Of a stretch of DNA of 64,000 nt, positions 7,299 through 53,816 are shown one piece after another; position 1 is the stretch's first letter; each line of letters begins with the position of its first letter. Source of the DNA: Gnetum montanum (taxonomy: Eukaryota; Plantae; Gnetophyta); assembly GCA_015680685.1 (NCBI GenBank), contig MNCI01001941.1, positions 737,318 to 801,317 of the forward strand, read 5' to 3'. The position numbers and the translations under genes were made by a program. Below the pieces are notes generated by a model. That model did no database searches. It had not been told where the DNA came from and was given only the letters and a program-made list of their open reading frames with translations.

Positions 7299-7358
<60 letters not shown>

Positions 7359-24120: not shown

Positions 24121-24587
24121 TCTCCTTATCTGCTTCTTTGTGGATTCATAGGGTCTTGTCATGTGCTATGTCACATGATATCCTTCCTAGATTTGGTTCA
24201 AATGCAATCCCCATAAGGTAATTTAAATCATGTTAACTACTGCATGTTTTGGAGCTAGGACTATGTTACCTTGCATGTTCCTCCATCTCATTTAATTTTC
24301 TTAATGAAAGATGAAAGTGAAGTCTATATGATAAGAATCAGTGTGATCATAAGTGATTCTTATTTGCATTGGCATCCCCCATTCTTCTTCATTAATGATT
24401 CTATCATTACTTCTTCTTATCTCCTTAGAAGGTGGTGATGTATCTTTGTTTAAGGTCATGTTTGTGAATTAAGATGTTGATTAAGAGAATGTAACTTATT
24501 TGGGTTTATTTAAAAACATTAAGATTTTGACTTTGGGTTTCTAATACAACAAACTTTGGAAAATCAAATATTAAGCATACATTGACT

Positions 24588-24607
24588 TGTCCCCAGCAAC
24601 AACACCA
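24588..24607 (-). promoter_or_regulatory. PBS of element C (tRNA-Asp type, Athila-like)
   Basis: Minus strand TGGTGTTGTTGCTGGGGAC is the C>T-decayed form of TGGCGCCGTTGCCGGGGA, immediately inside the 5' LTR. Confidence 0.85.
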
Positions 24608-24608
24608 A

Positions 24609-25523: not shown

Positions 25524-26008
25524 AGTCATGTCTAATGCTTTCCTCAAATACATCCACCAATTGCTCCTGTACTGCAAGCCTCACACTTGGACTTTTAGTA
25601 AACACATCTAAAGCTATGTGGGCTAGGAGTAGGAGGTTATCACATTTGATTAAGCTTCACTCATCCATCCTAAACTTATAGATAACTAAAACAAGAATAA
25701 AAAATTATAACCTAAGCAGTTAATGAAAGAAAAAAAATCATGAACCAAAGATAACAATCTTACTTACCATGTATGTGGTAGATGATGCCTAGAGGGGTTT
25801 GGAACCATGTATGGACATAGTGGCTAATAATCAAAGTGTTGTTCATGTTATATTGGTTGAACTTAGGCATCTTCCAAAATTTAAATAATTTATGAGTGTT
25901 CACAGTAGTCATGTCATCATGCCTCTCTCCCTCTGTGTGAACATTAGGTTCATTAATCAAGAACTTGACTATCAAGCTAGAGGAACTAGTTAGAAGGGTT
26001 TCCACTAT
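25524..26008 (-). pseudogene. Third copy (G) of the Tat accessory gene: end of exon 2, intron 2, start of exon 3
   Basis: IVETLLTSSSSLIVKF...FWKMPKFNQYNMNNTLIISHYVHTWFQTPLGIIYHIHG, then GT donor(s) at ~25762-25767, an ~85-nt intron, then FRMDE(R)SLIKCDNLLLLAHIALDVFTKSPSVR. Both peptides align to A and B. Confidence 0.85.
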
Positions 26009-28947: not shown

Positions 28948-30415
28948 TGTTGTGACCAAAAATCTCATTTGTTGGAAGAAAACCAAGGATCCTTGGTGTA
29001 AGGAATTCTTCAAATCAAAATCCCTAGGACCTCCATGAGAGAAATGGGATTCAAGGCACCCTGTCTAGTCTGGTAGATCAACCAAGGACTTATGAGATGC
29101 AAAATGTAGGAGTATAAATAGATCCAAAAAGTGCATAGAAAAAAATTTAATTTTAACACAAACCTCAAAACTTAAAAATTTATTGAGAAAGAATAAAGAA
29201 TAAGTTAGAGAAATGTGTACAAATGGTGCTTGGATGACCAGATAGGGGGTTCACTTATGCAAGAGTTCAAATCCCATTGAAGTTGATGTGATTTTCTCCA
29301 TGATCTAGGTGTTAAGCCACTCTTGATGCTATCGAACCTTTCTTCACTAATACAACCTTAGATCTATAAGTTGGGTCACTTCTAGGACATGAGAAAGGTG
29401 GAAAATTTGGATGCCAAATTGCTCCATGCTAGGGTTTGAAAATCCCATAGGTGTGACATTGACATAAAAAATACACAAATCTCAAGGCCATAATGCTTCC
29501 ATGTTAAGGTTCAAGAGAATGCATGTATGGGAACTTTCAAGAGCTCTTGAGTGCTTGAAAATGCCCTAAGTGTAGAATTGTAAAATTAGCTAAACTTTTT
29601 TGAAAAATTATTGGAACCAAATTTTCTTTTATGCCCAAAAGTTGTTGAACCTTGTCAAAAATTTCTAAACAAATTCTAAAACCTCTAAATGATGTTTGAG
29701 GTTATCTTTTATAGGATGTTTGGGCCATGAATGGGGCTGTAAATTGGTTGTGAAATGGCTACAAATTTACTGTAATTTTAGGTGAGATGGATATCCAAAT
29801 TTAGGGGTTACCATACATAGTAAGTTCTTTTCCCCATGGTCATTCCATTTACTATAAATATTAACTAGGGCACACCTATCACACTAGAGATGAATCTTCC
29901 ATGCTATGTTCTTCACCATGCTTATTGAAGTGGTTGGTCAATGCTGAAGTGCATCAAGTGATGAATTTTTGCTTTTGTGGCTTCCATACTAGGGGGATTG
30001 AGTTTTCCATATTGGGAATGAAGACTCCACAGAGGGGGGAAACTTTCACATTTAGGGGGGAAACTTTCTAGGATAAGGAAAAAATTCCATGCTGGGTAAA
30101 AAACTTCTAGGCTAGGGAAAAAGTTTCTAGGCTATGCATGTGGTCTCCATGGTGAAGGGGAAAAGTTTCCAAAACCCCCACCCTTCCATGCTATGGGTAG
30201 TTGAGATCTAGCCCCCTACATGTGTTTCTAGCATAGAAAAATGTATACCCCCCATATAACCCATCAAATTATTCTTTTTCTCATTTNAAAGTATGTGAAA
30301 TTTCCCTTTATGGGTTACAATTTTCACATTTATATGAAGTTTTGCTTTGGGTTTCATGGGGTGAAAGTTACATGATGAAGATTGGTTATAACATGAAAAA
30401 TTTTGTTGTGTTTCA
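28948..30415 (-). repeat. 3' LTR of element B (~1.47 kb; N at 30287), PPT at ~30418-30429
   Basis: TGTTGTGACC...gtgtttCA followed by atggtccctctttg (minus strand CAAAGAGGGACC). Confidence 0.8.
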
Positions 30416-30651
30416 ATGGTCCCTCTTTGTTGATGCCAAGAGGCACTAATAAAGAATAGAAAACACTATAGCATATTATACTAGTAAAATGCATATAGGC
30501 CACATGAAAATTAGGCTCTCCAAGTTACCAAGGTTGGTTTTTTAAGGCCATGGTGGACCATGGTCTTAGTTTAAGGCCCTGTCAAGTCATGTTGCTAGTT
30601 TAAGGTCGTAGCAAACTATTGAAAGTAGGATTTCTTGATGATGATTATTGG

Positions 30652-33600
30652 CTACATGTAGTATGGCTTTAGATAGGAATGATTGACCAGATTGGCCAAC
30701 CAATTTCCATCCATGTTAACTATTTTGAATGCTCTATTCCCATAGGCTCTAGTGATAAGGAAGGGCCCTTCCTAGTTTGCTAAGAATTTTTTGGCATGCT
30801 AACAGATGACCTTCAGGAGTAGGTCCCCCTCCTTGATCTTGTGCATGGTCAAGTCAGGTTGATGTTGTCACTTCTATCTCTCTTGATAATGCTTGATGTG
30901 ATCAAGCACTTGCATACACCACTCCTCCACTGAATCTAGGGCTATTGTCTTCAACTCCTTGTTCTACTCATTGTTGATGAAGTTGATCAAGGCTACTCGA
31001 AGCAATGGCACCTACAATTTAAGAGGTAAAATAACTTCAAAACCATAAACAAGGCTATAAGTGGTCATGCTAGTTGTCATGTGATAAGTTATTCTATATG
31101 CCCATAGTGCATGGACAAGCCACTCATGCCACTTCTATTTGCTATTGTTGAGCATCTTCTTGAACAAGTTGATGGTGGCATTGTTGTTTACTTTTGCTTG
31201 CCCATTAGCTTAAGGGTAGTAAGGTGACAAGAAAGAATGCTTAATGTCTAGGTTGTGACAAAAATACTTGGTTTCTTGGCTACTAAATTGAGGTCCATTA
31301 TCCATAACTATGGTCATGGGTATGCTAAAATGGGAACAATGTCATCTAGGATAAATTTGCAAACTTTTTCAGATGTGGTCTTCCTTAGGGGAATAGCCTC
31401 AATCCACTTGGTAAAGTATTAAGTTGTGGTGATGATGAAGCTATGTCCTATGGAAGACTTATGCATTATGGGTCCAATGATATCAAACCCTCATTGTTGA
31501 AATGGCCATATTATCTAGGTCTTATGTAACTCAGTTGGTGATACATGTATTATATTTCTATATCATTGGCATGTGTCACATTGCTTAATATTTTGCAGGT
31601 AGTCATGCTCCATATGGGGCCAATAGTAGCCTAACTATCTAATCTTATTAGCCATGGCTCTAGGTCCTATATGTCTTCCACAAAAACCCTCATGAACCTC
31701 CTCTAGGACTATTCTAGATTCAATTTTACCTAAGTACTTTTGGAGCATTCCATCATAGGAGCATTAACATAATGTGTTATCACCTACAATGACATATTGC
31801 TTTGATTGCTTATGTATGGCATCCTTTTGAGTAGTAGTCATGCCATGTGAGGATTCACCATGTGTAAGGTAAAATTTGATATCATCATACCACTCCTTGA
31901 TAGGAGTAGTATGAATGATGGCCACAAAGGTATCCTCAATGTCCTATGTGATAGCAATAGCATAGTCCATAGTTAAGATGGGCAACTTGCTAAACACATT
32001 TGGCATCACACTAAGGGCTAGTATTGTAATTTCATTAGCTATGGAATTTTCATTTCTACGTATGTATTGGACATCAACATCTATGAATTGTTGTAATAAC
32101 TACTTCCATAGGTCATAGTAAGCTTGTAAGTGCGTAGCTTTGAATGCATATACTTCAATTACTTGGTTAATCATGAGTTGTGAATTGCCTTTGATGACTG
32201 GGCATCTAATTCCTATGTCATGAGCTACCATGTTCCTCTAATCAAACCCTCATGTTTTGCTATGTTGTTCATACATGGGAACTCAAAAAATAGGCAAAGG
32301 GTTGGATCTCACTAGATGGGAATGTCATAATGGCAGCAACATTAGCCTCATGGGTAGTTGAAGCTCCATCAAAGTTCATGACTGCCTCATAACCCTTGAG
32401 CACTTGGCTAACTGAGTTAATGTATTCATTAAGAAACTTAGGATCTATGATTTCTTGGTCATCAACAGGTGAAACTATTGGGATATACAACTACTTTCGT
32501 AGATGTTGGTCATTATGGCTCTGAGTATGTTGTCCTTGTAAATTACGTTGACTTGGCTTCTAAAGAGGTAGTGTCTCCATTTCTTCAAAGAGAATACTAG
32601 TGCTAAACAATGCTTCTCTGCTTCATTGTATTGAGTCTCGTGGGCAACTAATGCATGGCTAAGGTAGTATACAAGCATTTTTGCATCATCATCACATTTT
32701 TGATAGACTAGAGTGGCAATGGATGTATCACAGATGATGAGATAAACATAAAATGGTTTACCCTCTTGTGGAGAATAGACTATCAGTAGTTGTGTGAACT
32801 CTTGCTTAAGGTTTTCAAAGGCCTCTTGGCATTGAGCTGTTCACTCATAGTGAATTCCATTCTTAAGCAAGTGTTGCATGGACTATAAATTATCCATAAA
32901 CCTAAAAATAAACTATAACCTACCTTGTAATCCCCAAAGCTCTTTATGGTTGGTACGTACTGCCAATTTAGATATGGCCTTAACCTAACCAGGATGTATG
33001 TGTATTCCTACTTCAAAGACTACAAAGCTAAGCATATTACTGGTCTTGACTCTAAAGACATACTTCTTAGGATTAAGCCTAAGATCATATTTGAGACATC
33101 ATTTAAGCACAAGATCTAGGTCATTAGCATGCTCATTGGCTATTTGAAACTTCATGGCTATGTTATCTACGTAATCATTAAGAAAACCTAACATGTAATC
33201 ACTGAAGATATAGGTCATGGCTCTTTGGAATGTTTCTCTAGCATTTTAAAGGTTAAAGGGCATTATAGTATAATAAAAAGAACCCCATGGGATCATAAAG
33301 GTCATGCTAAGTTGGTGCTTTGGGTTTATCCTAATTTGATTATATCCTAAGAATCCATCCATAAAGGACAGTAAGACATGTCCAACTATAATATCAATGA
33401 GTTGATCAATACTAGATAAAGGGAAGTCATCCTTGATAGTTTCTTTATTTAGGTCTCAAAAATTAATTCAAATATAGATACTCCTATTTTTCTTAGGGAC
33501 TACCACTATGTTGGCTACCCATCCTGCATAATCGATAACATTAATGAAACTTGCTTGGTAAAGATTTGAGATTTCATTGCAAACTACCAAGGCCAAATCA

Positions 33601-34080
33601 AGTCTAATCTTGTGAAATTTTTGCTTAACTAGTTTAATGGTACGGTCTAGTATGATGTTTTGTTGGACTCGATGTGGATTTAGGCCTAGCATATCTTCAT
33701 ATGACTAGGAAAATGCCTTAATGTTTTTTTTGTAAGATCTTGATGATATCTTGGGTACATTGAGGCTCTAGTGAGGAACTTAGTTTAAGGGTTTTCTCCT
33801 CACCACTATGTGTTGTGATAGGAATCTAAACTAGAGGGTCTTCACTTATGTCTCCCATTTCTAAGTTAAGAGTTTTGACTAGGTTTTCAGGCCATTCTAG
33901 AGGTTTCTCTATTAAGGCTATGTGGTCTACAAGAATCTAAGGCTTAAGATCTAGGCAATCAAGGTAGATACACCATTTAACAAAAATGTGAGATCCATGT
34001 AGACACAAAGGCAAATTAATTTACTGCTAGGTACTCATACTTTGATCTTGCATGTTAACCAAGGGCATATTAAGTGGCAC
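30652..34080 (-). pseudogene. Degenerate pol of element B (RT-RH-aRH-INT)
   Basis: WVANIVVVPKKN, SFMDGFLGYNQI, VYYLSHALVAHETQYNEAEKHCLAL, aRH MNFDGAST, integrase core, and C-terminal LKPYYM*. Confidence 0.95.
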
Positions 34081-34399
34081 CTAGGTAAACTGAATAAATA
34101 ATATTAAAATTCCATAAAACATATGCAACTCTAATGCAATCAAAACCATCCAAAGTCATCAGGGAGATAACGTTAATTTGGAAAAGTGTAATAGAGGTGA
34201 ATAATAGATCACATAAAGGTGAAAAAAGGGAAATTATAAAGCTAAAAATGGTCAATAAGGCCATAATTTTGCCAATTTTAGACCTTCATGGGCCATGATG
34301 CTAGTTTATAGTCTTCATGGACTATGATTGTAGTTTAAGGCCTTAATAGCCCATGGTCATATGGTGTCAAATGGTGGTTAGAGAAGGTAAAACCCCACT

Positions 34400-36480
34400 A
34401 TTCAATACCATTTAAAGGTCAAAGGCAAGCAAATAGAGTTTTAATGACTACTACTAGGGTTCTAGAGTGCATGAAAGGTCACTTAATGTCATTCTAAAGT
34501 GTTTAGGAGCCCCAAACAAGTCTTCCCTTGAGTTTCCACACTAGGGATACCACCCTCAATGTGGAAAAAGTGATCCCTAGCATGAAAAAACCCTGCAACT
34601 CAAATCTAGGCTAATTTTAACCTTAATCAACTATGCATGTTAGCCTCTAGGGTTATTGAGCTCGAGCACTAGGGTTTGGTGTTAAATTTTGGTAATTTTA
34701 AGTATTTCTAAGTGTTTTTTAGGCTTTCCCCCTTTTTTCCAAGCTTAGGATGGAGTAATTAGCATGAAAAATTAGGTGGAATTAATTTTTGGCATTCTAA
34801 CATTAGTTTCTTGATGTTTGAAGGCTCCAAATGATGTTAGCAAGGTCCTAGAGTGCATGCAAGTTTAGTTAATGTTTTTCTAAGGTAATTATGGACTCCA
34901 AATGGGTTGTACCATTAGTGTCCACGTTGAGCACCATGAAGGGGGAAATTCCTAGCATGGAGACACCATAAAACTCATATATAGCTCAATTTTAACTTCC
35001 GTTGACCATGCATGTTAGCCTTTTGGACTACTGGGGTTGAAGACTAGTGTTTGGAGTCAAAACTAACCATTTTATAGGTTTTCCAAGTGATTTTTAAGCT
35101 TACTCCTCTTTTTCCATGTTGGGGATAGTGTGCCTAGCATGGAAAATTATGGGGAAATAGATTTCCATACTTTTGCATCATTTTTTATCATGCATGTAGG
35201 TCCCTGAGGTTACTAGTGACAATGGTCAATGTTTGGTGTTAAAAGTTTTCTATTTTGAAGGTTGATGAGTGGTTTTTGGGCTTTCCACCTTTTTCCACAC
35301 TAGGGATTCCATGCTCAATGTTAAAAATTTGGGAGAAAGCTTTTTGATAATTTTTTATTACTTTTAGTCATGCATGCAAGCTTCCAATGTTGCCGGTGTT
35401 AACTACTGCCATATGATGTCAAAATTTTGTTGTTTCAAGGGTCACCACCTAATTTTTAGGCTTTCCCCATTTTTTCAACATTGGGGCTTTCATTCACAGT
35501 GTGGAAAATTATGGAGAAATATTTTTAATCATTTTTTATGGCTTTCAAGCATGCATGTAGGCTTCTACGGTTGCTAGCATCAACTAGTAACATTCGATGT
35601 CAAACTTTGGTTATTTCAACGGTCACTAGGTAATTTTTGAGCTTCCAACCATTTTTTTCATGTTAGGGAATCCATGTTTAGCATGGAAAACTAGGGGAAA
35701 AGCTTTCTAAACCTTTTATGACCAATTTGACTATGCATGAGTGTCCACAGGGTTGCCGATGTTGGCCATCAATGCCTAAGGTCAAGATCTGATCATTTTG
35801 AAGGCTATGAGGCAATTTTTAGGATTCCCCCCCTTTTTCACACTAATTATGGAAAGCTTAGTGTGGAATAGGTCCCCCTAAATGAAGAAAGTTAGATATA
35901 GGTAAAAAAGATAGCTGATCCACCATGCATGTTAACCTCTAGGTTTTTCGGTGTCAATGATCAATGTTGGCTATTAAGATTTGATAGTTTGAAGGCTTCG
36001 AAGTACCTGATACAATCTCTCTCCCCCCCCCCTATCTACCACATTTGGCATGGTGGCCCCAACATGGATGAGATGAGGATGGTAGTTTTGTATCATATTT
36101 AACACATTTGGAGCTTCTAGAATCTCCAAAGGGTTATTGGAGGGTCTAGGGGTCACTAGGCATCAAGAAATGATCATTAGGTCATCAATTCAGCTTATTT
36201 TTTCTTCCCCATTTATCCACATTTATGTTGATATGATCAACATGGAATAAGCTTCCCTAACCATGGAAAACACCAAATCCTATATTTCAACCAATTTTGA
36301 CAAGATTTGGTGGGATTTTGAGGTTGTTGGAGATGCTTGGAGGGCTTGTAGATCATGTGGGGCTTACTCTAGCATCAAACATATGCTAGATGAGTGTTGG
36401 GAGATAATAATGAGTGTTATCCCTCTTCTTCCATGCTAGGAACTATTACCATAGCATGGAAATCCATGCTGTTTAGCCTT
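34400..36480. repeat. Degenerate tandem array with ~180-190-bp monomers between RT and the antisense gene of B
   Basis: The anchor CTTTCCCC-TTTTTCCA(C/T)(A/G)CTAGGG recurs at ~34725, 35100, 35281, 35461, 35642, 35824, 36020 and 36200. Confidence 0.8.
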
Positions 36481-37076
36481 GCTCATGTTTTACCCACTTT
36501 TGAAAACTTGATGTTGAAAAAGATAGGTTTGCGTTAAAAAAGAGAAAAACATTTGTAATTCTAATGAATTTATAAAATAATAAGCATGTTTCCATGCTAA
36601 GCATGATATTCCCAATGGGGATGCATGTGGTTAAGGTTTTCATGATCTTTTAAGTGTTAAAATTGGTAAAAATCTCAGTGTTGTTGCAAGTTTTGGTTAA
36701 GAATGAAGGTGCAGGGTGGGGGCCACAATCCAAAATTTTAAAATTTTGAAAAGTGAAGTTGTTTACCACCAAAAACCAATGTGAACTAGACTTTCCCTTC
36801 TTGCACTTTAGTGCACTTGTTGTTATGCTACACTGAATTGGAAATTGGGGTTTCAAGGTGTGCATTTAGGTTTTATATGACTTTTATATGTCAAATTTTG
36901 CAAATTTTGATCACAACTATCATTCTACAACAACAATGCATTGGAGGAGAGATTTGGTAGAGGTTCTTGTGATAGCCAAAACCATTTCCTAGTGTGAAAT
37001 CCTCCCATCTACCCTACAACCAACATAGAACTCCTATATTCTCATAATCTTCATCATCCTTAGCATTGACCCTGCC

Positions 37077-40000
37077 ATGGAATCCAAGAAACAAGGGGAA
37101 AAGAGAAAAATTCCTATAATATAGAGGATGGATGAACATTCTTGGAAGTTAGAAGAAGTTCCCAAGTCCATCTGCATTCAAGCTTCTTCTATTACTGCTC
37201 CAAGGTAGGTATTTCTACCTATTTTTTCCTTTCTTCTAAGGATTTTAAAGTTTTATTTTTCATGTGTTAGGGTTGTTTTGTCCAAATCTTCTCTAGTGGA
37301 GGGATTAAAATGAAATTTTAATGAAATCCCACCTTCTATTTTGGCCATTTCCACATGGATCCATAGTCTTTTTTTTGTTTTAACTTTTATAGATTTGGTT
37401 TTAAAAATATGACTTTCTATTTCATGCCTCTTTCCCAAAATTCTAGGGTATGGCTATTTTTTCAGATCTAGCCCTAAGGATTTGTTAAAATTAAATTTTA
37501 ACAAAATCCTACCCCATTATTTTGGTGTGAATTTTAATGGGTTTCAATGGTCTTGGTTATTTTGACTATTTTAATGATGATATGAAATTAAGGCTTTGAG
37601 GTTTTTTGAGGTTTTAGCATGAAAAGATAAGAAATGTTTTGTATTTATTTTCTTGGTAAAATAACTAAAAATCTACAATATTGAAGGTTAAAAATTTGTA
37701 ACCCTTCATTAAAGCTTTCTAATGGCTATTGTCTTGTTTAATTTGACCTTGAAACAAAGAAGATATGGCTATTTTCCTAACATTACACAGTTAGGTTGTT
37801 TGTGCCACCTTTGTAATTTTATGTAGCTTTGCAAATTTGTTTTGAAATAAATGACAAAGGTTTTGGGTATTTTCTAAACATTACTACATAGGTGTTACCT
37901 TTAGCTTTCCACTGGAGGTCGAATCACTTCAATTTGATTTAAAATGGATTTTTATAAATATTTTACTAATAATGTGTAATAAGGATGTTTATGCCATTTG
38001 CAAATTATTGTCCAAATTGACAACTTTTTCTTGCATAAATGGAAAAGGTTTTAAATTGTTTCTAACCATGGATATGTAGGACTTGACTTAAGCTTTCAAA
38101 AGGTGGTGGAATCACTCCATTTGGAGCTCAAACAAATTTTTTTTATGAATTTTTTGCTATGGTTGTGTGAATTAAGGCAAAACTCATTATTGTAGTACAT
38201 TATCCATTTGAAAATAAAAGTGGTTGATATGTATCACTTATGTTTTTCTTTTGTGAACATGTAAATCTTAATTTTACTTTTAAAAGATATTTTCTATTTT
38301 AAATAAGCTTTTTCTATGGCTACATGGCCTTTTCTAAGTTTATTGTGCTTTTTCTAAATTTGTGCATAATTTAAGATGATTTTTCCAAATTTATGCATGT
38401 TTTGCATAATTTAGATGCTTTTCAAAATTTATGCATGCTTTCCATAATTTAGATTTCTTTTCTAAACTTATTCTTTCTTTTCTAAATTTATGCATAATTT
38501 AGATTCTATTTTCTAAATTTATGCATAATTTAGGCTAAGACTTAGTTTTAGCTCTAATGTTTTGGCTATAAAAGCTATAGAATATGGTAACAATGCTTTT
38601 ATGGAATTTCTTAACCTAATTTAGATAAAAATCTAAGAGCTTTTTATTTAGGCTAATTTCATCTCTGACTTAGGAAGTTTTTGCTAAATTTGTTAAGAAA
38701 TTCCAATTGGTTATGATGTAAGGTAATGCAAGTTTGTAATAATGTTTTCTTATGAAATTACTTAGATTAATTTAGAACAACACATTAAATCATTTTATAG
38801 AGGCTAATTTCACCTTTGACTAGATGTTTTATCTAAATTTTCCAAGTAACTCAAATAGGTCATAATGTTTTTTGTGCTTTATTTTATGTAGGGTCTTCTT
38901 GAGGCCTATCCTAATCATAGTGGAGCTAGTTGGTATTTTGTGCTATATTGATCATCCTAAGATGAACACACTACCACATGACATGCCTTTCAAGAAGCTC
39001 TCATTGTGGTTTTGGCCTAGGCAAGGAACTTCCTTACCTACCTCCTTGGGAACTTCAATGTGATGCCATAGTCACACTTATTCATGGATGCAGCTAGAGT
39101 TTTTGTGGAGACCTTGTTGCCTTGGGCATCTAGCCTAATTACTAGACATATTACTAAAAAACCACTTTCTAAGACTGCAGGGGGACCAACATATGTCATA
39201 AGTCCACATTACCTTTCAAAGATCTAGATAATGCTAGATTATAGTCAATATAATACTAACAATACTCTGATTGTGGTGCATATAGCCCACACATTATTCT
39301 AGAACCCTCCAAGCACCATATACCATCTATAGGGGTAAACATGGTTATTGTAATGCTTTTATGCTTTTGGCTCAATTACCTAACCTAACTTCATTAATTT
39401 AACTTGCAAGTACAAGACCAATGATTAGGGCTTAATCATAAATGATCAAATCCTGACAATGGCTCAAACTACTTTGGATGAATTCACTAAGAGTTCCCAA
39501 ATCAGAGCTACTATGTATCAATAGTTAAAAGGAAACCTTGATGAATATGCCACTAGGTTTAACCTCATATACAAAAGGTGCAAGGATGATGGGACAATGC
39601 ACAGCTAGTGGGTAGATGTCAATAGTATAGATCGGACCCTTGCTAAAACCTCCATAATATAGAAGAAGAGTAAAGGTAAACATATAGCTTCTAGTATTTT
39701 ATGGCTCTAAGTGCTTCATTGATTTTCTTGGTTGTCGAAATTGCTCATATTGATGCTAACCTTTGGTTAGTGCTTCGTAGGACCTTCCACCTCAGCTGAT
39801 GTTACTATACCACTTTCATGTTCATTTCATGAGGATACCCTCATCTTGAAGTTTGGTGATGTGATATTAACATAGGAGTGCTAAAGGGGTAGTCACTTGG
39901 ATATGTTCAAGTGAGCATCCAACATGAAGGTTTACTCAGTGTATTCATGCAACATATTCTTTCCATTCCTACTATAGAGATGTTACATGTCGTCGACTCC

Positions 40001-42110
40001 TTTGATGAGAACGTTGGTTGTTTTAGTACCATCATCTGAGCTATTAAGGTAAACATGGACATAGGTGCTGGCATCTTTTGTGACTTGTTTGGTATCCCTA
40101 CTTATGGGGCAAAGGTTCCCACTAGGATGGTATGAGAATTAGGCCATCATGAAGAAGTGCTAGAGTAGCTTGGTGCTAGCATGGGCTACTCTGGAATTTT
40201 GATGGATAGCTTCATGAATCATGATGTAAAGGAATCATATCCTTTGTTTAGATCTCATGCATTCCCCAAACTACTATCATAAAAGAAGGTAATATGCCTA
40301 GAACAGGGATGAACCTTTAAGAAGATCTTGATGGAGGACATTAAATTTGAATGGGTTATTACTTTGGCTATTGGGCTTCGAGAGGAGATCCTTAGATTCC
40401 ATGTTTAATACTATATGATAATCCATATACACTTTGCATTTTTTTCAAGTTATCTAAAGAAGTTTTGAAAGTTTCTAGTTGTGTATAGGAATGGACAATG
40501 GATTTTCTAAGACCCAAGCCAACATTCTAGGTTTTGGATAAAGCACATCTATCCAACAATGTATGCCTACACTAGAGGGGATGGATGATACATTATCCAT
40601 CACCACTAAGAATCTTGATGTTAGGTAGTACGAGTCCCTTGATAGTACTAATGATGATGAGCCCCTCTCATTTCTCATTAGTGTCTAGGATGCTAGATGA
40701 TAGTGCATCGAGGCCAATAAGTATCTAGAAAGAAACTCAATAGGCTTATGGAGGAGGCACCCCTAGCATCAGATCAGCCTACCTTGAAGAAGCTTAAGTT
40801 TAAGCTTAATCCCTCATAGCAGGAAGTTGCAGGTATGCTTTGTTTAAATTTGGGGATTTCATATTTTAAAATCTTATGGCTACTTTATGGTTTTAGGTGT
40901 TAATTGGTATTCTATGTGCTATGGTTATAGATAAGCATCAGGTTATAGTAGCCCAAGCTACTGCAAAGGTAGAACAAAGATGTCTAGAAGTGACACTCCT
41001 AAAGCAACCTATGGTTGAAGGACTTGCCGGTATAGGTATAGATGATCTAGATTTCTTGTTTGGTGGGGTAGCACCAAGTACCTCTCCCATCATCATCCTA
41101 GAGGGGGGAGAGGAGGAGGAGCTAGGTTTGCATATGCCTTAATAATTTTGTTATATCTCATTGGTTATCTTCGGTTGTCATCCTAACCTCTCAATGATTA
41201 TTATACTTACAGTAGTTCCTAAACCACTAGTTCTAGCTTCCATCCCTATGTTTTGTGTGAAACCATGGGTAGAGACTCTAGAAAAAGAGTTCTTGCATGG
41301 GATGGCTAAGGACATCATCAATCGATTACATTAGGTTGCACCTGAGATAGGTAAGGGTTTTATTTTATGTGCTTTAGTCATGGGCTTTGCTTAGATTATT
41401 GCTATCTTAGGTTTTGTTTTATTATTTTATTTTGTGCTTGTGTAGTACCTTTCATGGAGTGGAACCCCAGCAAAGACATGTAGATAGACTCATTGCCTAA
41501 GTGTTCCTCTAATGTGTCTAGTGTACCTATGAAGTTGTATGAGACTACTATTGATTTACCAATGTCATGTGCAAAAACTTCATGGGAGCTAGAGAGGTTC
41601 AACGAATTCCTATGGAAGGAAGTTGTAGCCTTAAGGTAAAAGACTCAAAGGCAGGAGGACACAATTAGACATCTTTGAGACCATAAAGCCTTTGTGAAAG
41701 TCCAAGTGGCTAACTTAAGGAAGTTATAGAGTAAAGAGATCACAAGGGCCAACTACTAGCATGTTGTTCAAGACAAAGTAGCAATCCTATGGGAGATGGA
41801 AAAACAATGTATGCATATGGAACTAATCTTCCAAAAGGTTTAGGATTAGAAGGATCACTGAGCTTGGGTCTTGTAGTGGGGCAAGACATAAAAGGCCCAC
41901 AAGCATCAGTATAAACCTAATTATGGGGCCTACCTAAAGGGACTTAAGAAGGAGTTGGTTGAATAGCATAAGAGAGAGCTATTCATTGAAGGGATGTAGG
42001 TGGAGAGTTCTTATCAACTTTTTGAAAGTACTCTCAAGGTGGAGTAATTCCCTACTCTTCAGATCATCATGACTATAGGTGAGACCTCTACTAGTAGTTG
42101 TGCCTATCTA
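37077..42110 (+). pseudogene. Antisense multi-exon accessory gene of Tat element B (homologue of 3811-8651), truncated in exon 7
   Basis: Exons 37077-37204, 38892-39334, 39410-39693, 39781-40832, 40931-41125, 41213-41350, 41446-~42110. Intron phases and flanking peptides match A. Confidence 0.85.
38330..38535. repeat. Short tandem repeats (TTTTCTAAATTTATGCATAATTTAG-like) in intron 1 of the B gene
   Basis: Several degenerate copies visible. Confidence 0.7.
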
Positions 42111-42369: not shown

Positions 42370-45300
42370 CAGTTTCAATATAAGAGGGTTTTATATGAAT
42401 CCATCATATCAACTATTTGGGGCTTGGGTATTACACATTAAATTTTATTTATTATATCATTATGTTCATATTAATCTAGATCTATTTTAGTTTTAATCAT
42501 TTTCTTTGGATTCTGAGTGATTATCATTTCATGTGCTTTTAACAATTTTTACAAGGGTTTGGACCATTTGTCATACCATCATCTTGTTGGTCACCCTGCT
42601 ATTAGTTTAAAATTGATTTATGGGATCTAATTCATGGCTTGGATTATTTAAACATTACTTGTTGATTTTAATTTATCTTTAACTTATTTTGAGCTATTTT
42701 CTTACTATTTTAAGATCTTTCACTATAACCACAAGTTAACCACATATAATGGTGAGGCTATGGCCACTAACCACAAGTTCTAGTCAAGACATGGTCTCTA
42801 GCCATGGGTCATTAGGGAGTCATAACTAACCCCCTTTTCTCTTTCCTTGCATTTTTATCCTCTATTTTTGGAAAACATGTTATACCATGAGTTGTGTTTA
42901 CGTGACTTAATATCATAAGTCATCAAGAAGTTATGATTTAGTCCCTTATTGTTATCATCATATCAAGTCATCTTAAGAGGTTTTTGTATAACCATGGGTC
43001 ATGGTGAAGTCATGGTTTAGTTATGATCTTCCATTACAAGTCATGATGAAGTTGTGATCAAATTGTGCTTTCCCATCATAAGTTGTGGTAAAGTTGTAGT
43101 CAAGATTCTAAATCATTCTTATCATTCTGAACCATTCAAGTCATTTCTTATTGACAATGGTTCATGGTCAAGTTATGGTCTATCCACTATGGATTATGGT
43201 CCAATCATAATAATTATCATTAAGCATTTTTATCATAAGTTTTCATTGGTGATTTTCTAAGTAAACCACTAGCTATCATTAGAACGTAATCTAGTTGTTG
43301 TAAGTAATCATGTATCAAGGTAAGTTTATGATTTCAACAAATTTTTTCTTTCTTGAAATTGGAGCTTAATTCAACATGTTTTGATATCTTGGAATAGCAT
43401 TGCATACTTTTTATTTTGTATGAAACATGTTAGAATGTTGGGATTAACCTTGGATTTGAATGATTAGTTTCATATCAAATTTCTAGTTGTTTGATCTTGT
43501 TAATTCATTTGTACATCCCTCCACCATCAATTTTTGATTTATAGATACTTGGATTATTTTATGTTTAATATTTCATGGGAGCTAGCACTTAGTGATGTGA
43601 TATGTTAAAGATGAGCTCCCTAAAGATGTTTGATATTTGACCCTCACTAGGATGCATCAATGTCGCTCTTGCTACAAGCTCTATCCTATAGAAGAGGATG
43701 ATCCTAGACTCATTGGTTCTTGTTTGATGTCTCCATAATATTAGAGATGGGTCCTAGATGACACATCTAGCATTTGTATTTTGAAACATTAGAGGTGAGT
43801 TCTAGTTGGCAACACTTATTCTATTTGAGATGAAAATTGAATCCATGCACATGGTAGTTTGAAATTTGATCTAGCATTTGGTTTCACATTTTGGTTTGAA
43901 AATTACTAATAATAATGATTCACATCCATGATATTGAGTGTGATGTATGATAGTCTCTTTTATTTGCAAGTTGATGAAAAGAAGAGAGAGGACTATGTTT
44001 TATCAAATAGTAATGAATTTTTTTCTATAAAATAGTTTAATGAGAATTTATTATATCAACCATTTGAGGCTTAACTATTATACATTAAATTCATATCATT
44101 ATATTTTTCTTAATCTAGATATATTTGGATTTTCATCATTGTGTTGGATTTCAAGTCATTATCATTTCATAAGCTTTTGATGAATTTTACCTAGGGTTTA
44201 GATCCTTTGTTCAACCATCATCTTATTGGTCACCTTTCCCTCAATTTCAACGTCAAGTTATCATCTCTAAGTCATGTCTATATTGTGGCCAACATTAGTT
44301 ATTAATAGTCAATTATCTTGAAGTCACTTTAAGTTATTTTCCTATCATTTTATGTTTTTCATCATAGCCATAAGTCTACTATGGATTGTGGTAAGATTGA
44401 AGATATTGACCATAAGTCAAATTTAGGTCATGATCTCCCACCATTCATGGTGGGATTATGGAAAATATTTTCTTATTTTCTTACCATTTCTATCTCTTTT
44501 CCTTTTTAGAAAACCTATTATTTCATAAGTTATGATCAGGTCATGGCCTTATACCATAAATAATAGAGAAATCATGATCTTCCATGATGAGTCATGGTGA
44601 AGTCTTACTTTATTTCCTTTGTTGATGTTATCATATCAAGTCATCTTAAGAAATTCTTTGTTACCCATTGGTCTAATGAAGTCATGGTCTTCCATCACTA
44701 GTCATGATAAAATTGCAATCCAAATTTGGTCTTCCATCATCATTCATGATGAAGTCATGATCAAGGTTCTAAACCATTCTTGTCATTTTGATCTATTCGA
44801 GCTATTTCATATCAACCACAAGTTGCAATCAAGTAATGGTCTACCCATTGTAGATCATGGTCTAATCATGGTGAAGTTGTGATTAACTATTTTTATAATA
44901 AGTTTCTATTGCTAGTTTTTTGAGTAAACCATGAGCCATGGTTAGGTTATGGTTTGGTCATGGTGAGATTTTAATTTTATAATTTTGCAAGTTCTACATT
45001 AATCTTACTATTGAAGCTTAATTTGGTACATTTTGACATCTTTGAATATTATAGGATACTATTTAGTTTCTTTGGAAGATGTTGGAATGTTGAATTTGAC
45101 CTTGGACATGATTGCTTGATTTTAGATGGAACTTCTAGCCTTGTAATCTTGTTGGTCCATTTGTATAACCCTTCACCATTAATGGCTAGTTTGTAGATGG
45201 TTGGAAGATTTTTTGCTTACTATTGGGTAGGAGCCTATACCAAGTTATGTGGTTAATTGAAGATCAGTTTCCTAGATATTTTTGGTATTTAATCACAACT

Positions 45301-45630
45301 ATTATGCATTATTATGACTCTTTCTATAGACCCCATCCTATAGGAGAAGATGATCCAAATCATATTGATCCTTATTTGATATTTCTATCACATTATAGAG
45401 GAGTCTTGGATGGTACCTCTAGCATCGATACTTTGAAACATTAGAGGTGAATCCTAGGTTATGTCTTCATTTAGATTGAAACTAATAATAAATCCTTGTG
45501 TATGGTAGTTTGGAATTTGATTTGGAAACTACTCATGACAGCAATGTACATATATGACAACAATTTATTTATAGGTTGATGGATGGAAGGGAGAGCGTTA
45601 TGTCTTATGAGACGATGATGAATGACCTAG
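42370..45630 (+). repeat. Diverged tandem duplication, ~1.65-kb unit (about 42370-44020 and 44020-45630), each with exon-like segments
   Basis: Colinear blocks, e.g. ccatcatcttgttggtcacc (42577) vs ccatcatcttattggtcacc (44215), and tttgaaacattagaggtga (43780 vs 45432). Confidence 0.85.
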
Positions 45631-47153: not shown

Positions 47154-47572
47154 TGGAATGAAGAAGATGACAATGAAGAGGAATAGGCTACAATTAAGGG
47201 AGTATTCTGTAATAGGTTAAGCTATAGATCTTTGAGAAGCCCAAGAATGTTCAACCCATGTAGGACTAACCAACTAGTAAAATTCTCATAAGACCTAGCA
47301 TGACTAATAGAAAAAGGTAGGTATTGTAAGGATGTATCCAAAGAAATAAATAATAATAATAATAATAAGTCATTACAAAGAAAAAATTCATAACAAGATT
47401 AAAATACACCAAGAATGACTACAGAATGTAGACAATGCAATTATGAAAGATGTATAATAATGAGTTATTTACCCAATAAGTTATGTATTAAGATTTCCTA
47501 TAACATAAATGTTCCTTAGATAATTAGAATTATCCAAGAGACATAGAACTAAACTCTAACATGGTATTAGAG
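47154..47572 (+). mobile_element. 5'-truncated LTR plus tRNA-Met PBS of copia-type element H (copy 1)
   Basis: ...ctctaaCA TGGTATTAGAGC; homologous to 52456-52884. Confidence 0.8.
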
Positions 47573-47630
47573 CAAACCAACAATTAGTTCTAATACTATA
47601 TTTTGCAACATGAGTGGAGAAGGTTCACTC

Positions 47631-48514
47631 TGTTTGCTTTAAACCTTCAAACACATACAATCCAAAATATATGAAGATAATTCAATATCCTAGAGAAAAA
47701 GAAACTAGCTATCTTTAATCAACATAAAAAATATTTAAAATCATTGTTTTGACAACCACAACATCACAAATCACTCACATATACTTAACAATATTGCATA
47801 ACATGAGGCTTTACAATCACACAATGATTTTTTTCAATACAAGGCATATCTTAAAGAGATATCTTCCACTAACACATGAATGAAATTCAAACACCACAAA
47901 TAGAGAGAAAAAATGGTCAAAATATAGATTTGAACATAGAAATGCACACACACCTATACAATCTCTTTCAACAAAATCTCATGTGCTTAGCTCTTGATCT
48001 CATGATCAAAACATAAAACACATAATAATATTTATTAAATTCAAGATTAAAACCCTAAAAAAATTTCTCCACTATTAACTTGGATATTTCTAACTACTGT
48101 TATCTTATTCCCATATTTTCTAGCTATTTCAAAATTTGTAGCTACTAACTTGAAATTTTTCCTAATCATATAGGACATCTATATGCTCAACAAGATGTCT
48201 TTGGCCCATGGAAGATGACTCTTATTAGAATGAGAGATCTCCTCCTATGATGAGAAATCTACCCAAAGATGTCTCTTATATAACAAAGACATTCCTTGAT
48301 AGGATGAAATGTCTTCTCATCTGACAAGACATCTCCTCCTCTTGATAAGATTTCTCTTATCAATTCCTAGCTCTTAACAAAGATGTCTTTCTGATCTCTA
48401 AGATGCCTCTTTATCTTCATAAAACTTTGAATTAATCACCTACATAAATGAAAATGGGACTTAAAAGAGATATCCCTACATTAGTTCTCCCACCCTTTCA
48501 AAAGTAAACATACA
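47631..48514 (-). mobile_element. 3' LTR and PPT of an unrelated gypsy-type element J (second copy ~52940-53816)
   Basis: Minus strand TTTTGAAAGGGTGGGAGAACTAA followed by TGTAGGGATATC at 48480; AGATGTCT/AGACATCT motif cluster. Left boundary uncertain. Confidence 0.55.
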
Positions 48515-51500
48515 TGTGAGGACCAAGAAATTAGGAGGGTTCAATAAGTTTTCCAAAGCAAACAACCAAGATAATCAAAATGACAAATAAATTTATGTGG
48601 TTCCAAAACTTGGATATGTCCACACTTGGAGGGTAGAATTCTTGTGCACCTCTAAACTTTGTTCCTTAAAAAATTACTTTAAAGGACACCACAACCTTTA
48701 TAATATTTGGGCTTCAGTTAGAGTGTTTTTTCATTGCAAACACACTCAACCCCACAAGGTCCAACTAAGATCAAAATTTGATTTCAAGGATTCCACAACC
48801 TTTACAAAGATGTAAGCTCCACTCATAGTGTTTTCATGATAGAGACATACTCAACCTCATAAGGTCCCAACAAGATTACAAGATGCCATCTTACAAGAAG
48901 CCCATCAGCCCTGTAGGGTTACAAAGAAAGAAAAAAAGTCAAGTAGAGAATGTAACTCACTTTACAAATTCCTTACACTTAGGAACATATACAATAATTC
49001 AAAAATGATGGAAAAATAAGGAACAAAGATAATTCATTGGATAAACAAGAATGATATTGATCAATCAATAGTACTTGTACATTTTCCAAGAATTCCACTT
49101 TATTTTATAGCCTTTTACTTTCCAAATCCTCCTTAGAATTCATGCACTAGCTAGGAAATGGCTGGTTGGGATGTCCCATTTATGCTAGGGAATCTATCTA
49201 CAAATATTATTCATTTAGGTGGAACATCCCATAGAAAATTGGAATATCTCACTTGGGAGGTCCTAGCTATGATGTCCCAGCTGCAATTGGGACACTTGTT
49301 ATTTATTTGGGACATCTGATTTGCAATTGCACTTTGAACTCTAGGACATTCTTCTAACATTTGGGCAAGCTAAGTAGATCTTGAAAAAAATTATTTTGGC
49401 TTGTATACTTCATTTATTAAGACTTTCTATCATTTCATATCAGCATCCTAGCTCTTGTTTTATCATCCTAGCTCTCATTTTTCATCCTAACTCTCATTTT
49501 TCATCCTAGCCCTTGTTTTGTCATCCCAACTCTTGTCTTGACAAATCAGCTCTCATTTTGATACCAAGAAGTTCTTGTTTCAATCATCATGAAGTTCTTG
49601 TATTTACACCAATAAGTTCCTATCACTTTAAAGCTCATGATTGTGATCTTGTCATGTTCTTCCTTAGCCTTGCAAGACCACAAGCACATTTTCCACATGC
49701 AACATTTTCTAAGATTTTGATGTACTAAAAAGTTAACAATATCCCCTTTTCTAGTGATGTCCAAAACTTAAGAAAATAGATTATCACATTCTTAATATCA
49801 TATGATTGAACAATTTAAAACACAATTGTACACACACACACACACACAAATATTCATTAATAATCCTATTATAGAAGGAAAAGCAAAGAAAAAGAGATGA
49901 AGTATTAAATGGTGCATATCCATTAGCTAAAATCACAAGAAGCCAACACAATAAAATGGTAACATAAAAAACTATCCAATGTCTATCCATCTATGCATGA
50001 TGCAAGCATAAACTATATATATATAGTTGATATATATATATATATATATCACAACCTATTCCCAATTAAAAAAGTGCACAAATCATGACAACATGTGTCC
50101 ATATAACTATCCACAATAATATCTCCTCCACAAGTATACAACAATAGCCACAAAAGCTCTCCTCTTTTTCCAAACATCACTCAAAAGGAGGGGATTATGC
50201 AACTCCTCTAACCACTAACCTCTATATTATTATCATCCTCATCATAGCTAGAATCTACATGAGTGGGCTGATAAGTCTCCTCATCATCATCACTGCTAGT
50301 ACTAATGATAATGACCTTCTACTTATCATCATTAGAAGAAGATACTATGATAGGAGCTTCTCAAGGATGAAGCTTTTCCCAAAATCCTAATGAAGAAGGG
50401 AAATAAGATGAAGCCTGCTAGTAAGAAGAAGAAGTATCCTTCTATTGATAAGGTTTCAGAGTGACTTCCTCCTAATGAGCTATGACAACAAAATTCTCTT
50501 CATCACTTGTTGTTCAAAATATTGAGGAAAATCCTCCTATACATATGAACTCAGTTCAAGCTAATCGGGATCAAGAATAGACTCTCCCTAAATACATGCA
50601 GGTGGTGCAACAAGATCCTTAAAATTAGATGAATTTAACAAATCATACCCTTTGGATGGTGGAGCTATTGTAGAATAACTAGCTGGAGCTAGAATATCCT
50701 CATCATCAAAGCAGTAATATCCTTAAACTACTACTGATATGAAGGAGGTGATAGGCCTAGTACATCTAGTCTCTTATGCAAGTAAGAGAGATTTTGTCCA
50801 ACCATACCTAAGACTTTACCAAAGGGTTTTAACACCTTCTTTAACACTAACTTCACCTGTACACTTATAGATTTTGATCTTTTAAGCAATGAAAATTTTG
50901 CTTCTTTCCTTCTTATCTTTGGAGGTGGAGAAGTTGGGGCTTCAAAATCTACAATTGTGATGCTCCTCTTCTCTAAAACTCTACAAGACTCATCTTCCCC
51001 TTGAGAAGAGGCATATCAGGGATAGGAACACTTGCTTTTCAAATTAATAAACTAATAAGAAGATGCTTTCCTGAAAACCTCTCTTTAGTAAATAAATCCA
51101 CCATGTCCCTCAAAAGAATGTGTCCTAAGTTTAATGGCTATCCAATTAGAAGACAATAGAGCACAAAATCTTGTGTGGCCAAAAAATAGTTACAACTTCC
51201 TCCTTTTATAATAATGTTATATAAGATAATAAGTGAGAGTTTGGAAGCATCTTTCAATATTTGATAGCTATAAACTTTTCCACTTCTAAGAGACAATGAA
51301 TTACCAAAAATGACATTACAAAATTCATCTTGAGAAAATATAAGTACACCTTTGGTGAATATATGACTCATGGAATGTATATTAACCCTATGTATCTTAG
51401 AGATGGAAATCCCAAGAATAGCATTCACTACTTGGGGTGAAGCCCCAATCACAATTTTCCCAACAATAAAAGTAAAAGCCCCAATAGCAACATTAGTAAT

Positions 51501-52235: not shown

Positions 52236-52872
52236 TGATGCTCATGTAGATTTAAAGTGAGGTTCTCCCTTAAGATTCCCTCCTCTATGATCAATACAAA
52301 TCTCTTGTATCCAATATGTTTTGTCTCCATTTATAAAATTCTTTGTTGTTTGATTTATAGTATAAGTATATGTTCTTTATTCTTCCTTAGTGAGAAATTC
52401 ATAATTTGGTCCAGTTTCCTATAGAGGAATAAAAGACCACATAGAAGATTACCAGGGAATGAAGAAGATGACTATGAAGAGGAATAGGCTATTATTAAGG
52501 TAGTAGTTTGTAATAGGTTGAGCTATGGATCTCTTAGAAGGCCAAGAAGGTTTAGAACATGTAAGTCTGATCAACTAGTAAAATTCTCATAAGACCTAGC
52601 ATGAATAATAGAAAAAGGTAGGTATTGCAAGGATGTAGCCAAAGAAATAAAATAATAATAATAAACATAATAATAATGATTCATTATGATGAAAAAATTC
52701 ATAACAAGATTAAAAGACACCAAGAATGATTACAGAATGTAGACAATGCAATTATGAAAGATGTATAATGATGAGTTATTTATCCAATAAGTTATGTATT
52801 AAGATTTCATATAACATAAATGATTCTTAGATAATTAGAATTATCCAAAAGACATAAAACTAAACTCTAACA
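52236..52872 (+). mobile_element. Complete LTR of element H flanked by a PPT (52224-52235) and a PBS (52873-52884)
   Basis: cttgtgagggcg-TGATGCTC...ctctaaCA-TGGGATCAGAGC. Confidence 0.75.
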
Positions 52873-53816
52873 TGGGATCAGAGCAAACCAATAGTTAGTT
52901 CTAATACTATATTTTGCAACATGAGTGGAATAGGGTCACTCCATATGCTTTAACCCATCAAACACACATAAAATTCAAAATATATGAAGATAATTAAATT
53001 TTCTATAAAACAAAAATAACTAGATATCTTTAATCAACATAAAAAATATTTAAAATAATTGGTTTAACAACCCACAACATCACAAATCACTTGCATATAC
53101 TTAATAATATTGCAAAGCATGAGGCTTTACAATCACATAATAATTGTTCTCAATACAAGACATAGCTTAAAGAAATATCTTCCACTAACATAGGAATGAA
53201 ATCCAAATGCCACACATAGGGAGAAAAAGTGATCAAGATATACATTTGACCATAGAATTGTAGACACACCTATACAATCTCTTTCAACAAACTCTCACAT
53301 GCTCAACTCTTGATCTCATGGTCAAACCATGAAACACATTATAATATTTATTAAATTCAAGATTAAAACCCTCTCCATTCTCAACTTGGATATTGCCAAA
53401 TATTTTTATCTTATACCCATATTTTCTAGACATTTCAAATTTGGAGCTACTAACTTGAAATTTTTCCTAGTCATATAGGGCATCTATATGCTTGCCAAGA
53501 TGTCTTTGATCCATGGAAGATGCCCCTTATTAGAAAGAGAGACCCCCTCCTAGGATGAGACTTCTACACAAAGATGTATCCTATATAATAAAGACATCCC
53601 TTTATAGCATGAAATTTCTTATTTAACAAGACATCTCTTCCTCTTGATATGATTTCTCTTATCAATTCCTAGATCTAAACAAAGATAACTTTTTGACTTC
53701 TAAGATGTCTCTTTAACTTCACAAAAATTTCAATTAATCATATATATAGATGAAAATGGAACTCATAAGAGATATCCATACACTAGTTCTCCGACCCTTT
53801 AAAAGGTAAACTTATG

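Follow-up and report, generated by a model that had tools for sequence, protein, structure and literature searches.

A 64,000-nucleotide stretch of the Gnetum montanum genome (assembly GCA_015680685.1, contig MNCI01001941.1, positions 737,318 to 801,317, forward strand; here called the window, in whose own numbering all positions are given) is a nest of decayed plant long terminal repeat (LTR) retrotransposons marked by strong CpG loss. It holds three homologous stretches, copy A (3811-8651, plus strand), copy B (37077-42098, plus strand) and fragment C (26035-25524, minus strand), which are probably decayed copies of one multi-exon gene carried antisense in Tat-type elements, a likely spliced accessory gene present throughout the family. 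The gene lies between gag-protease and the reverse transcriptase (RT) in the element that hosts copy A (element A), and directly ahead of the RT in the element that hosts copy B (element B). Antisense accessory genes of retrotransposons are already known; what is new here is the location, between protease and RT.

Copies of the gene

The three copies and the candidate promoter are laid out as follows (nt, nucleotides; shuffle counts give the number of shuffled comparisons that reach the observed score).

3667-3675, plus strand: TATA-like box, candidate promoter of the gene, 144 nt upstream of the ATG of copy A.
3811-3929, 4782-5231, 5338-5597, 5689-6737, 6858-7259, 7442-7579, 7669-8489 and 8589-8651, plus strand: the eight exons of copy A, about 1100 codons, decayed.
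37077-37204, plus strand: copy B exon 1, from the ATG to a phase-2 consensus donor; phase and approximate length as in A exon 1, peptide similarity to A not significant.
37205-38891, plus strand: copy B intron 1, 1687 nt, GT-AG, 73% A+T with internal short repeats; not alignable with A intron 1 (71 of 300 shuffles).
38892-39334, plus strand: copy B exon 2, a hydrophobic 19-residue stretch (hydropathy 2.33) and then the domain common to A, B and C, with one frameshift; both halves 0 of 2000 shuffles.
39416-39675, plus strand: copy B exon 3, of the same length as in A (260 nt), with a non-canonical in-phase acceptor; 0 of 2000 shuffles against A and 0 of 5000 against C.
39781-40832, plus strand: copy B exon 4, main conserved domain and basic KKLxxKL stretch, with one frameshift; a 160-codon ungapped block with A at 28% identity.
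40931-41125, plus strand: copy B exon 5, low-complexity and shorter than in A, placed by its splice sites, 3' end uncertain; not significant against A (293 of 2000 shuffles).
41213-41350, plus strand: copy B exon 6, equal in length to that of A (138 nt); 0 of 2000 shuffles.
41446-42098, plus strand: copy B exon 7, helical and by rough count heptad-like in pattern, similarity to A stopping at its end; 215 codons ungapped, 24% identity, 0 of 2000 shuffles.
25524-26035, minus strand: copy C, a fragment with most of exon 2, a 98-nt intron 2 and the start of exon 3, truncated by an Athila-like LTR at 25523.

The seventh intron and eighth exon of copy A are both without counterpart in B, where the similarity stops at about 42098, and the length of A intron 5 is unreliable because a 58-nt poly-C run and an N lie inside it. 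Exon 2 of copy C matches those of A and B (0 of 2000 shuffles), while its exon 3 gives 0 of 5000 shuffles against B and 178 of 5000 against A; the 98-nt intron between these exons is GT-AG, its best donor being off phase by one base. That copy C might continue past the Athila-like insertion, at 15045, was considered and rejected (best 481 of 2000 shuffles).

Both A and B are now pseudogenes. The 1093 codons of copy A include 28 stops, TAG in 22 cases and TAA in 1, and the copy has 1 frameshift, its other five frames holding 40-105 stops; copy B has 49 stops in 948 codons and 2 frameshifts, with 53-96 stops in the other frames. An excess of TAG is expected from the methylation-driven decay of glutamine and tryptophan codons. 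The initial annotation of this DNA had presented A and B as a pair of diverged copies; their homology stands, while the third copy had been overlooked, the eighth exon of A has no partner in B, and both copies are dead.

Homology and purifying selection

At the DNA level no pair between the copies appears in a blastn self-comparison of the window; tblastx aligns A and B in collinear blocks at the protein level. When ten frame-consistent segment pairs of A and B were compared with 2000 shuffles each, seven of them (E2a, E2b, E3, E4b, E4c, E6 and E7, named after their exons) were reached by none of the shuffles, at 22-43% identity, and three were not significant, namely E1 (1850 of 2000), E4a (871 of 2000) and E5 (293 of 2000). 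These counts led to the rejection of homology between the copies in exons 1, 4a and 5. Conservation of the exon peptides had been claimed, and it holds for exons 2, 3, most of 4, 6 and 7, with exons 1 and 5 and the beginning of exon 4 falling away; the peptides that had been quoted are where they were placed (14 of 14 short motifs searched, 13 of them distinctive, the other quoted peptides being visible in the three-frame translation).

Divergence is unequal among codon positions. Identity between A and B is 0.49, 0.64 and 0.32 at positions 1, 2 and 3 (432 codons in six ungapped blocks), against 0.26, 0.29 and 0.25 at random (chi-square p 1e-20), the blocks having been chosen by protein similarity, which biases the figures toward positions 1 and 2. 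The single 160-codon ungapped block has the same pattern, with 74, 98 and 43 of its 160 codons identical at the three positions. Four-fold sites are identical in 11 of 43 cases, synonymous differences are saturated (pS 0.82) and dN is 0.66. As had been stated from visual comparison, the introns are dissimilar: all six A/B pairs score within their shuffles (71 of 300; 395-787 of 1000). The codon-position pattern, taken with saturated synonymous sites and unalignable introns, bears out the earlier proposal and shows long purifying selection on a protein-coding gene in the lineages leading to copies A and B. The pol genes of the two elements give 0.67, 0.76 and 0.45 at the three positions, with pS 0.78 and dN 0.32 (649 codons). 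By this comparison the accessory gene has evolved about twice as fast as pol in protein, with synonymous sites saturated in both, which is compatible with co-divergence of the two genes and is no proof of it.

Chance similarity, or an artefact of the assembly, was weighed as an explanation for these matches. The window does contain assembly-like features (4 Ns, duplications and the poly-C run in A intron 5), yet seven of ten segments reach 0 of 2000 shuffles in collinear order, there are three copies, and independent contigs carry the same sequence family. For the homology itself this explanation is refuted, and its probability overall is negligible.

Splicing

On the evidence of sequence features the gene was very likely spliced. 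Taking A and B together, 11 of 13 introns are GT-AG, in matching phases. Of the 6 consensus positions, the 12 donors match 4.33 and the other 541 GT sites of the two spans 1.90; none of 100,000 random draws reaches the donor score, even when the null takes the best of three sites per junction. The 11 acceptors are T-rich (0.55 against 0.30; p 1e-4, best-of-three null). Exon lengths in A and B are 119/128, 450/443, 260/260 and 1049/1052 nt for exons 1 to 4 and 138/138 nt for exon 6, exon 5 being variable (402/195), and they agree with the phases apart from the one frameshift in A and the two in B. The conservation of intron positions and phases reported by the initial annotation thus survives in its main part, with three exceptions: both ends of A intron 6 are non-canonical; the in-phase acceptor of B intron 2 is non-canonical, a canonical AG lying 5 nt upstream and out of phase; and the donor of B intron 5 is uncertain because exon 5 cannot be aligned with A.

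Six RNA runs were compared with copy A alone, on either side of 7281-7361. Several features of the reads may be recorded beside the question of splicing. In run X11, between 4770 and 5660, reads from sister copies fall mostly as first mates on the minus strand over exons 2 and 3 (depth 4-8 against 0-2), a pattern that in most stranded libraries would denote RNA in the direction of the gene; other bins differ. Loose read ends start exactly at the predicted acceptors 5337 and 8588 (6 reads in X11, 4 in X13), and we take them as a border of similarity and not as a demonstrated splice, because their letters mismatch the preceding exon of copy A. In one run, three reads carry poly(A) behind 9047 on the plus strand, adjoining a genomic A run, and three carry poly(T) before 8667; these could be converging 3' ends of the gene RNA and the gag-protease RNA, and are too few to serve as evidence.

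Host elements and position of the gene

The elements that surround copies A and B were annotated with Pfam and by translation. The domains of pol are the RT, ribonuclease H (RH), an additional RH (aRH) and integrase (INT).

240-2969, minus strand: element A pol, RT-RH-aRH-INT (Pfam; tblastx to B), with an acceptor-like site at 2969.
9121-12600, minus strand: element A gag and protease (protease at about 9800-9400), decayed, gag read from the translation.
13149-13165, minus strand: element A primer-binding-site-like motif, the 5' LTR lying above 13176 with its outer end not fixed.
30700-34089, minus strand: element B pol, RT-RH-aRH-INT, without a protease ahead (Pfam RVT_1, RT_RNaseH, RVT_3, Integrase_H2C2, rve), with acceptor-like sites at 34089 and 34080.
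34090-37076, no strand assigned: element B spacer from pol to the gene, with degenerate 181-nt repeats and one exact TAGTTTWAGGYC motif.
8847-8963, plus strand: TAGTTTWAGGYC motif array behind the gene of copy A (16 matches in the window, 1.5 expected).

Read along the minus strand, element A consists of the LTR, the primer-binding-site-like motif (presumably for tRNA-Arg), gag, protease, the reversed gene and, from about 2970, RT-RH-aRH-INT. Element B has the gene 3 kb ahead of RT-RH-aRH-INT in the same arrangement, and in both elements the gene is on the plus strand and the retrotransposon genes on the minus strand, that is, in antisense orientation. The protease of element A matches four Pfam aspartyl-protease models weakly (E 0.017-0.17); its gag has no Pfam match. 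For comparison we used 80 Ogre-type loci, in 41 of which protease and RT were both detected, and the protease of element A hits the protease position of these 41. The distance from protease to RT is 6816 nt in element A and 745-1636 nt (median 1066) in the 41 loci.

From their sequence the host elements are classed as Tat-type Ty3/gypsy LTR retrotransposons. The Ty3/gypsy order RT-RH-INT is present in both by Pfam, and RVT_3 (PF13456, aRH) stands between RH and INT (E 7e-14 in A, 4e-4 in B). The RTs of the two elements share 55% identity and cluster with each other (SH-aLRT 99) in a quick tree of 121 rows with midpoint root and without labelled Tat or Athila references or an outgroup, from which 1 of 120 hits was dropped for short coverage. 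In this tree they are placed near a Taxus protein, weakly, and outside a 90-row clade (SH-aLRT 100) that holds seven named angiosperm hits, which sets them apart from the angiosperm Ogre clade. The top RT hits are 39-53% identical, the named ones coming from angiosperms and Taxus and the Ogre-type angiosperm proteins lying at 40-47%; no RT relative was found among viral contigs.

A repeat family with retained introns

The span 7362-9900, from the last part of the gene into the protease, was compared in 30 bins with contigs from one DNA run each of two organisms. It recruited 20,281 contigs from one run and 17,459 from the other organism's run, covering all 30 bins and mostly 80-95% alike, the summed contig depth not being a copy number. 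The span is a large repeat family across exons, introns, 3' flank and protease alike, and its introns are retained. Several of the 16 pieces listed pass unspliced through introns 6 and 7, and two of those listed extend from the motif array behind the gene into the tail of the gag-protease frame; the whole stretch is covered by no single piece. An intron-removing joint at the intron borders is absent from the 15 joints shown of 75.

Short motifs also tie gene and element together. A short motif of the LTR of element A recurs in the promoter region of the gene and in introns 1 and 4, with 14 of its 16 matches inside element A (1.1 expected). The TAGTTTWAGGYC motif occurs, beyond the array behind the gene of copy A, ahead of pol in A (3102-3470) and in B (34331) and behind the INT of B (30567-30607), and has one match in the 80 Ogre-type loci. 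CpG content does not consistently single out the motif-bearing parts: the observed/expected ratio is 0.57 for A intron 1 and 0.61 for the 3' flank, but 0.32 for the spacer and 0.30 for the LTR.

These observations bear on whether the gene belongs to its elements at all, since it could instead be a passenger from an intron-rich DNA transposon or a host gene family, separately inserted and selected in a former life. Eight exons are typical of DNA-transposon and host genes, the Tat extra open reading frames (eORFs) with a PMD domain are related to MULE genes according to the available text of PMC4408406, and the A/B signal is silent on where selection occurred. We nevertheless consider a passenger origin very improbable: the gene has the same place and orientation in two elements whose RTs are only 55% identical, its introns hold the LTR motif of the host element, and sister contigs run from the gene into the gag-protease tail. 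Hallmarks of a DNA transposon are likewise missing, with no inverted pair flanking the gene among the 17 pairs listed (at least 30 nt), target duplications lying outside that search, and no transposase or host domain in the Pfam and 1.84-billion-representative searches.

The encoded protein

The protein of copy A comprises a hydrophobic 19-mer, two domains (one common to A, B and C, the other in exon 4), a patch of basic residues, a presumably disordered low-complexity exon rich in acidic residues (35% Asp+Glu) and a C-terminus that is helical and, by a rough count, has a heptad-like pattern. The hydrophobic stretch at the start of exon 2 is conserved, with 12 of 28 residues identical between A and B and hydropathies of 2.76 (A) and 2.33 (B).

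Homologue searches were blank. Fifteen segments of the gene gave one Pfam hit at E up to 1 (E 0.25), with no TRP28 or PMD domain among them, and two stop-free pieces gave one (E 0.079); decay reduces the sensitivity of Pfam here, the Athila-like and Copia extra ORFs of the window being without a hit as well. Seven segments against NCBIfam gave one hit at E 0.019, below the cut-off, and a search of PDB sequences with A1 and A2 found no homologue. An exon 4 profile had no match at E 0.001 among 1.84 billion representatives, exon 7 lying outside the large-set searches; word-based searches were empty both for exon 4, with 369 candidates restricted to longer proteins, and for exon 2, with 38 candidates restricted to proteins of similar length; and a metagenome scan with the exon 2 alignment returned 177 pattern matches, none of them confirmed. 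Against the 80 Ogre-type loci, the best of 17 exon peptides reached E 0.016, on the back of the RT. A relation to PMD/DUF7745 was rejected, since the Ogre-type ORF1 profile found nothing below E 0.38 in the window and hhalign gave a probability of 0.1. By eye, exon 4 has a likeness to what we take to be the ATHILA ORF1/Transposase_32 pattern, without a Pfam hit. Two AlphaFold models of the protein have pLDDT values of 36.0 and 36.7, too low for use.

By analogy and composition we favour, at about even odds, a regulatory role in the nucleus, where the protein of about 1100 residues would act on its element as an oligomer, in the manner of the PMD-coiled-coil and TRP28 proteins encoded by other Tat elements. 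The best-conserved parts of the protein include the 19-residue hydrophobic stretch, which together with the helical C-terminus would suit a membrane-anchored, env-like accessory protein. Such a protein is unlikely, as a conserved Glu stands in the middle of the stretch, a second hydrophobic segment is absent, the basic KKLxxKL patch and the acidic region suggest a nuclear protein, and the env-like ORFs described in the available text of PMC7264820 are in sense orientation behind pol.

Expression of the gene and of pol

The gene would be transcribed from its own promoter, head-to-head with pol, for which the TATA-like box at 3667 is a candidate. Its introns, being GT-AG on the gene strand only, would be competent for splicing on that strand alone, which would leave the spliceosome unable to excise them from genomic RNA and let them survive reverse transcription; this would account for every DNA piece seen keeping its introns. 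Retention of this kind suggests that the element likely took up the gene as DNA, the source being a DNA transposon or a host gene, or else by antisense read-through.

As to pol, we lean towards its being joined to gag-protease through splicing, the entire 6-kb block being excised as an enlarged intron of the Ogre type, because acceptor-like sites stand just ahead of pol in A and B and because Ogre elements splice there (PMC4408406, available text). The same accessory gene could also exist without any splicing between gag-protease and pol, the gag-protease RNA being separately polyadenylated and pol being expressed from an internal bidirectional promoter shared with the gene and from its own ATG. 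A separate pol transcript would agree with the want of a good sense-strand donor after the protease frame, with in-frame Met codons just ahead of the RT linker in both elements, with the motif array just ahead of pol in A, and with the three reads of one run whose poly(T) before 8667 may mark a minus-strand RNA end (agreement 0.67, weak). It is nonetheless somewhat unlikely: the acceptor-like sites just ahead of pol are T-rich in A and B, the Ogre relatives splice an intron at this point (PMC4408406, available text) and have a stop-containing spacer in three of the four loci viewed (L044 being the exception), and the peptide that surrounds the Met codons lacks significant conservation (303 of 2000 shuffles). 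Excision of the block as a large intron remains our preference. Under a bolder scheme, pol would have been divided in a Tat lineage of non-flowering plants, with an eight-exon gene of a new protein family lodged in the gap. Gene and RT-RH-aRH-INT would have a divergent promoter in common, and the gene product would be a sequence-specific regulator or an anti-silencing factor, recognising the short motif arrays conserved near pol and the gene, and thereby the equivalent in a retrotransposon of the VANC proteins of DNA transposons; we regard this scheme as decidedly unlikely.

Among the Ogre-type loci viewed, L035 (9460-9700), L005 (6880-7050) and L017 (9580-9760) have a gag-protease frame that ends in a stop overlapping a GT donor, with a short T-rich spacer between this stop and pol; L044 is without such a break.

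Observations that weigh against this account

Several observations count against an accessory gene that was spliced, resident in the element and regulatory. A spliced joint is present in none of the six RNA runs, in which 30-143 reads per run, nearly all less than 95% alike and from sister copies, fall on copy A and give a depth of a few reads; and three RNA reads run unspliced across the border of exon 6 and intron 6, these same reads carrying a canonical donor where that of A intron 6 has decayed. The exon borders were initially picked by eye, and the donor consensus was the textbook one. In copy B the gene holds 49 stops in 948 codons, against 20 in 731 for B pol, and is barely below its best other frame (53). 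Element B has no gag or protease in the window, and for that reason the linkage of protease and gene is drawn from element A and from short overlapping contigs. Behind the protease frame of element A no sense-strand donor scores at least 4 of 6, which counts against the large sense intron. The conserved hydrophobic stretch is equally compatible with a membrane protein, and the function is assigned by analogy alone, because neither homologue nor domain was detected and the PMD/DUF7745 profile did not match. The initial annotation had spoken of a spliced, translated gene; splice-site strength and exon lengths agree with this, and the RNA runs supply no joint.

Comparison with known systems

Ogre elements form lineage IV of Tat and have an intron between protease and RT (Macas and Neumann 2007 and Steinbauerova 2008, cited in the available text of PMC4408406). 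As in the elements described here, their gag-protease is set apart from RT-RH-aRH-INT by a spacer, and aRH lies between RH and INT. Their spacer, however, is non-coding and about 1.1 kb long, whereas that of element A is about 6.8 kb and filled by an antisense gene; the extra ORF that they carry precedes gag, in sense orientation, and is of the PMD type, a type lacking here and without a match to the gene protein; and they splice on the sense strand, where element A has acceptor-like sites and no strong donor.

Selected antisense accessory genes are found in other Tat elements, with a TRP28 domain (PF04195) in Retand, Grande and RIRE2 and a PMD domain (PF10536) in gymnosperm TatIII. Antisense Tat eORFs are described in PMC4408406, whose available text gives those of Retand and TatIII the same layout of a domain plus coiled coil as the gene here. 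An own promoter is described for gene23 of Grande (PMC7264820, available text), to which the candidate TATA-like box would correspond. The Retand and TatIII eORFs differ in lying between pol and the 3' LTR and in being described as ORFs, whereas the gene here is ahead of the RT, has seven introns and has no TRP28 or PMD match. An additional antisense gene, brtn, is also known from the fungal Boty gypsy elements (Zhao et al. 2011, mentioned in the available text of PMC8365987 and PMC7264820); it is fungal and behind pol, and no sequence relation is implied. The domain order of elements A and B is that of Tat structure #1, the 'retroviral' RT-RH-aRH-INT of non-flowering plants, recorded in ferns, gnetophytes, Ginkgo and cupressophytes (PMC10508981, PMC13468544), for which the available text describes no extra ORF or intron, the terms intron, antisense and eORF having 0 occurrences in that of PMC13468544.

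The gene thus resembles the antisense accessory genes of Tat elements, and stands outside both Ogre and the 3' antisense class by position, RT clade and domain. In the available text of eight sources (PMC4408406, PMC6317226, PMC11963269, PMC8365987, PMC13547354, PMC7264820, PMC10508981 and PMC13468544) the only positions given for Tat extra ORFs are upstream of gag and downstream of pol, and the intron of Ogre is described as a plain one. No antisense or multi-exon gene between protease and RT is described in the literature covered, which excludes most subscription papers (including Steinbauerova 2011 and Zhao 2011) and supplements such as the eORF tables of PMC6317226. Should this interpretation be right, a selected protein of 1100 residues, from a family not recognised before, has long been part of a high-copy element family in a large plant genome, and the expression of pol must cross a 6-kb block that houses another gene. 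It would raise the questions of what Tat accessory proteins do and how pol expression is balanced with genome packaging. In genome annotation, copies of such a gene would be prone to miscalling as host genes or to omission.

Other elements in the window

Directly behind copy B, where the gag-protease of element B would be expected, lies a tandem duplication of 1.5 kb of AT-rich DNA (42379-43870 and 44026-45521, 67% identity). Short duplications around single Ns (336-464 and 60374-60485) and the 58-nt poly-C run before an N (7300-7359) resemble assembly joins.

The element that interrupts copy C is Athila-like and occupies 15046-25523 on the minus strand, with LTRs at 24609-25523 and 15046-15958 and a gag (Pfam E 1e-7); no RT or INT was found in it, and its flanking 5-mers mismatch, giving no target duplication. 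A younger gypsy element at 57700-64000, minus strand, has its INT at 63999-62500 (Pfam rve, Integrase_H2C2) and behind it, at about 60500-57700, a sense extra ORF that combines a domain with a low-complexity region and a long helical tail; this ORF has no Pfam match, and we take it to be Athila env-like. A similar helical extra ORF is present in the Athila-like element at 17600-16400. Two direct copies of 4 kb (47155-51142 and 52456-56420, 85% identity) each have remains of an extra ORF, near 51600-50700 on the minus strand, without Pfam match and presumably of the Transposase_32 type found in copia elements. Finally, a decayed copia-like gag-protease-INT was recognised by eye at 26100-28950 on the plus strand, and it has 340-430 nt in common, inverted, with 48598-48935 and 53830-54245.

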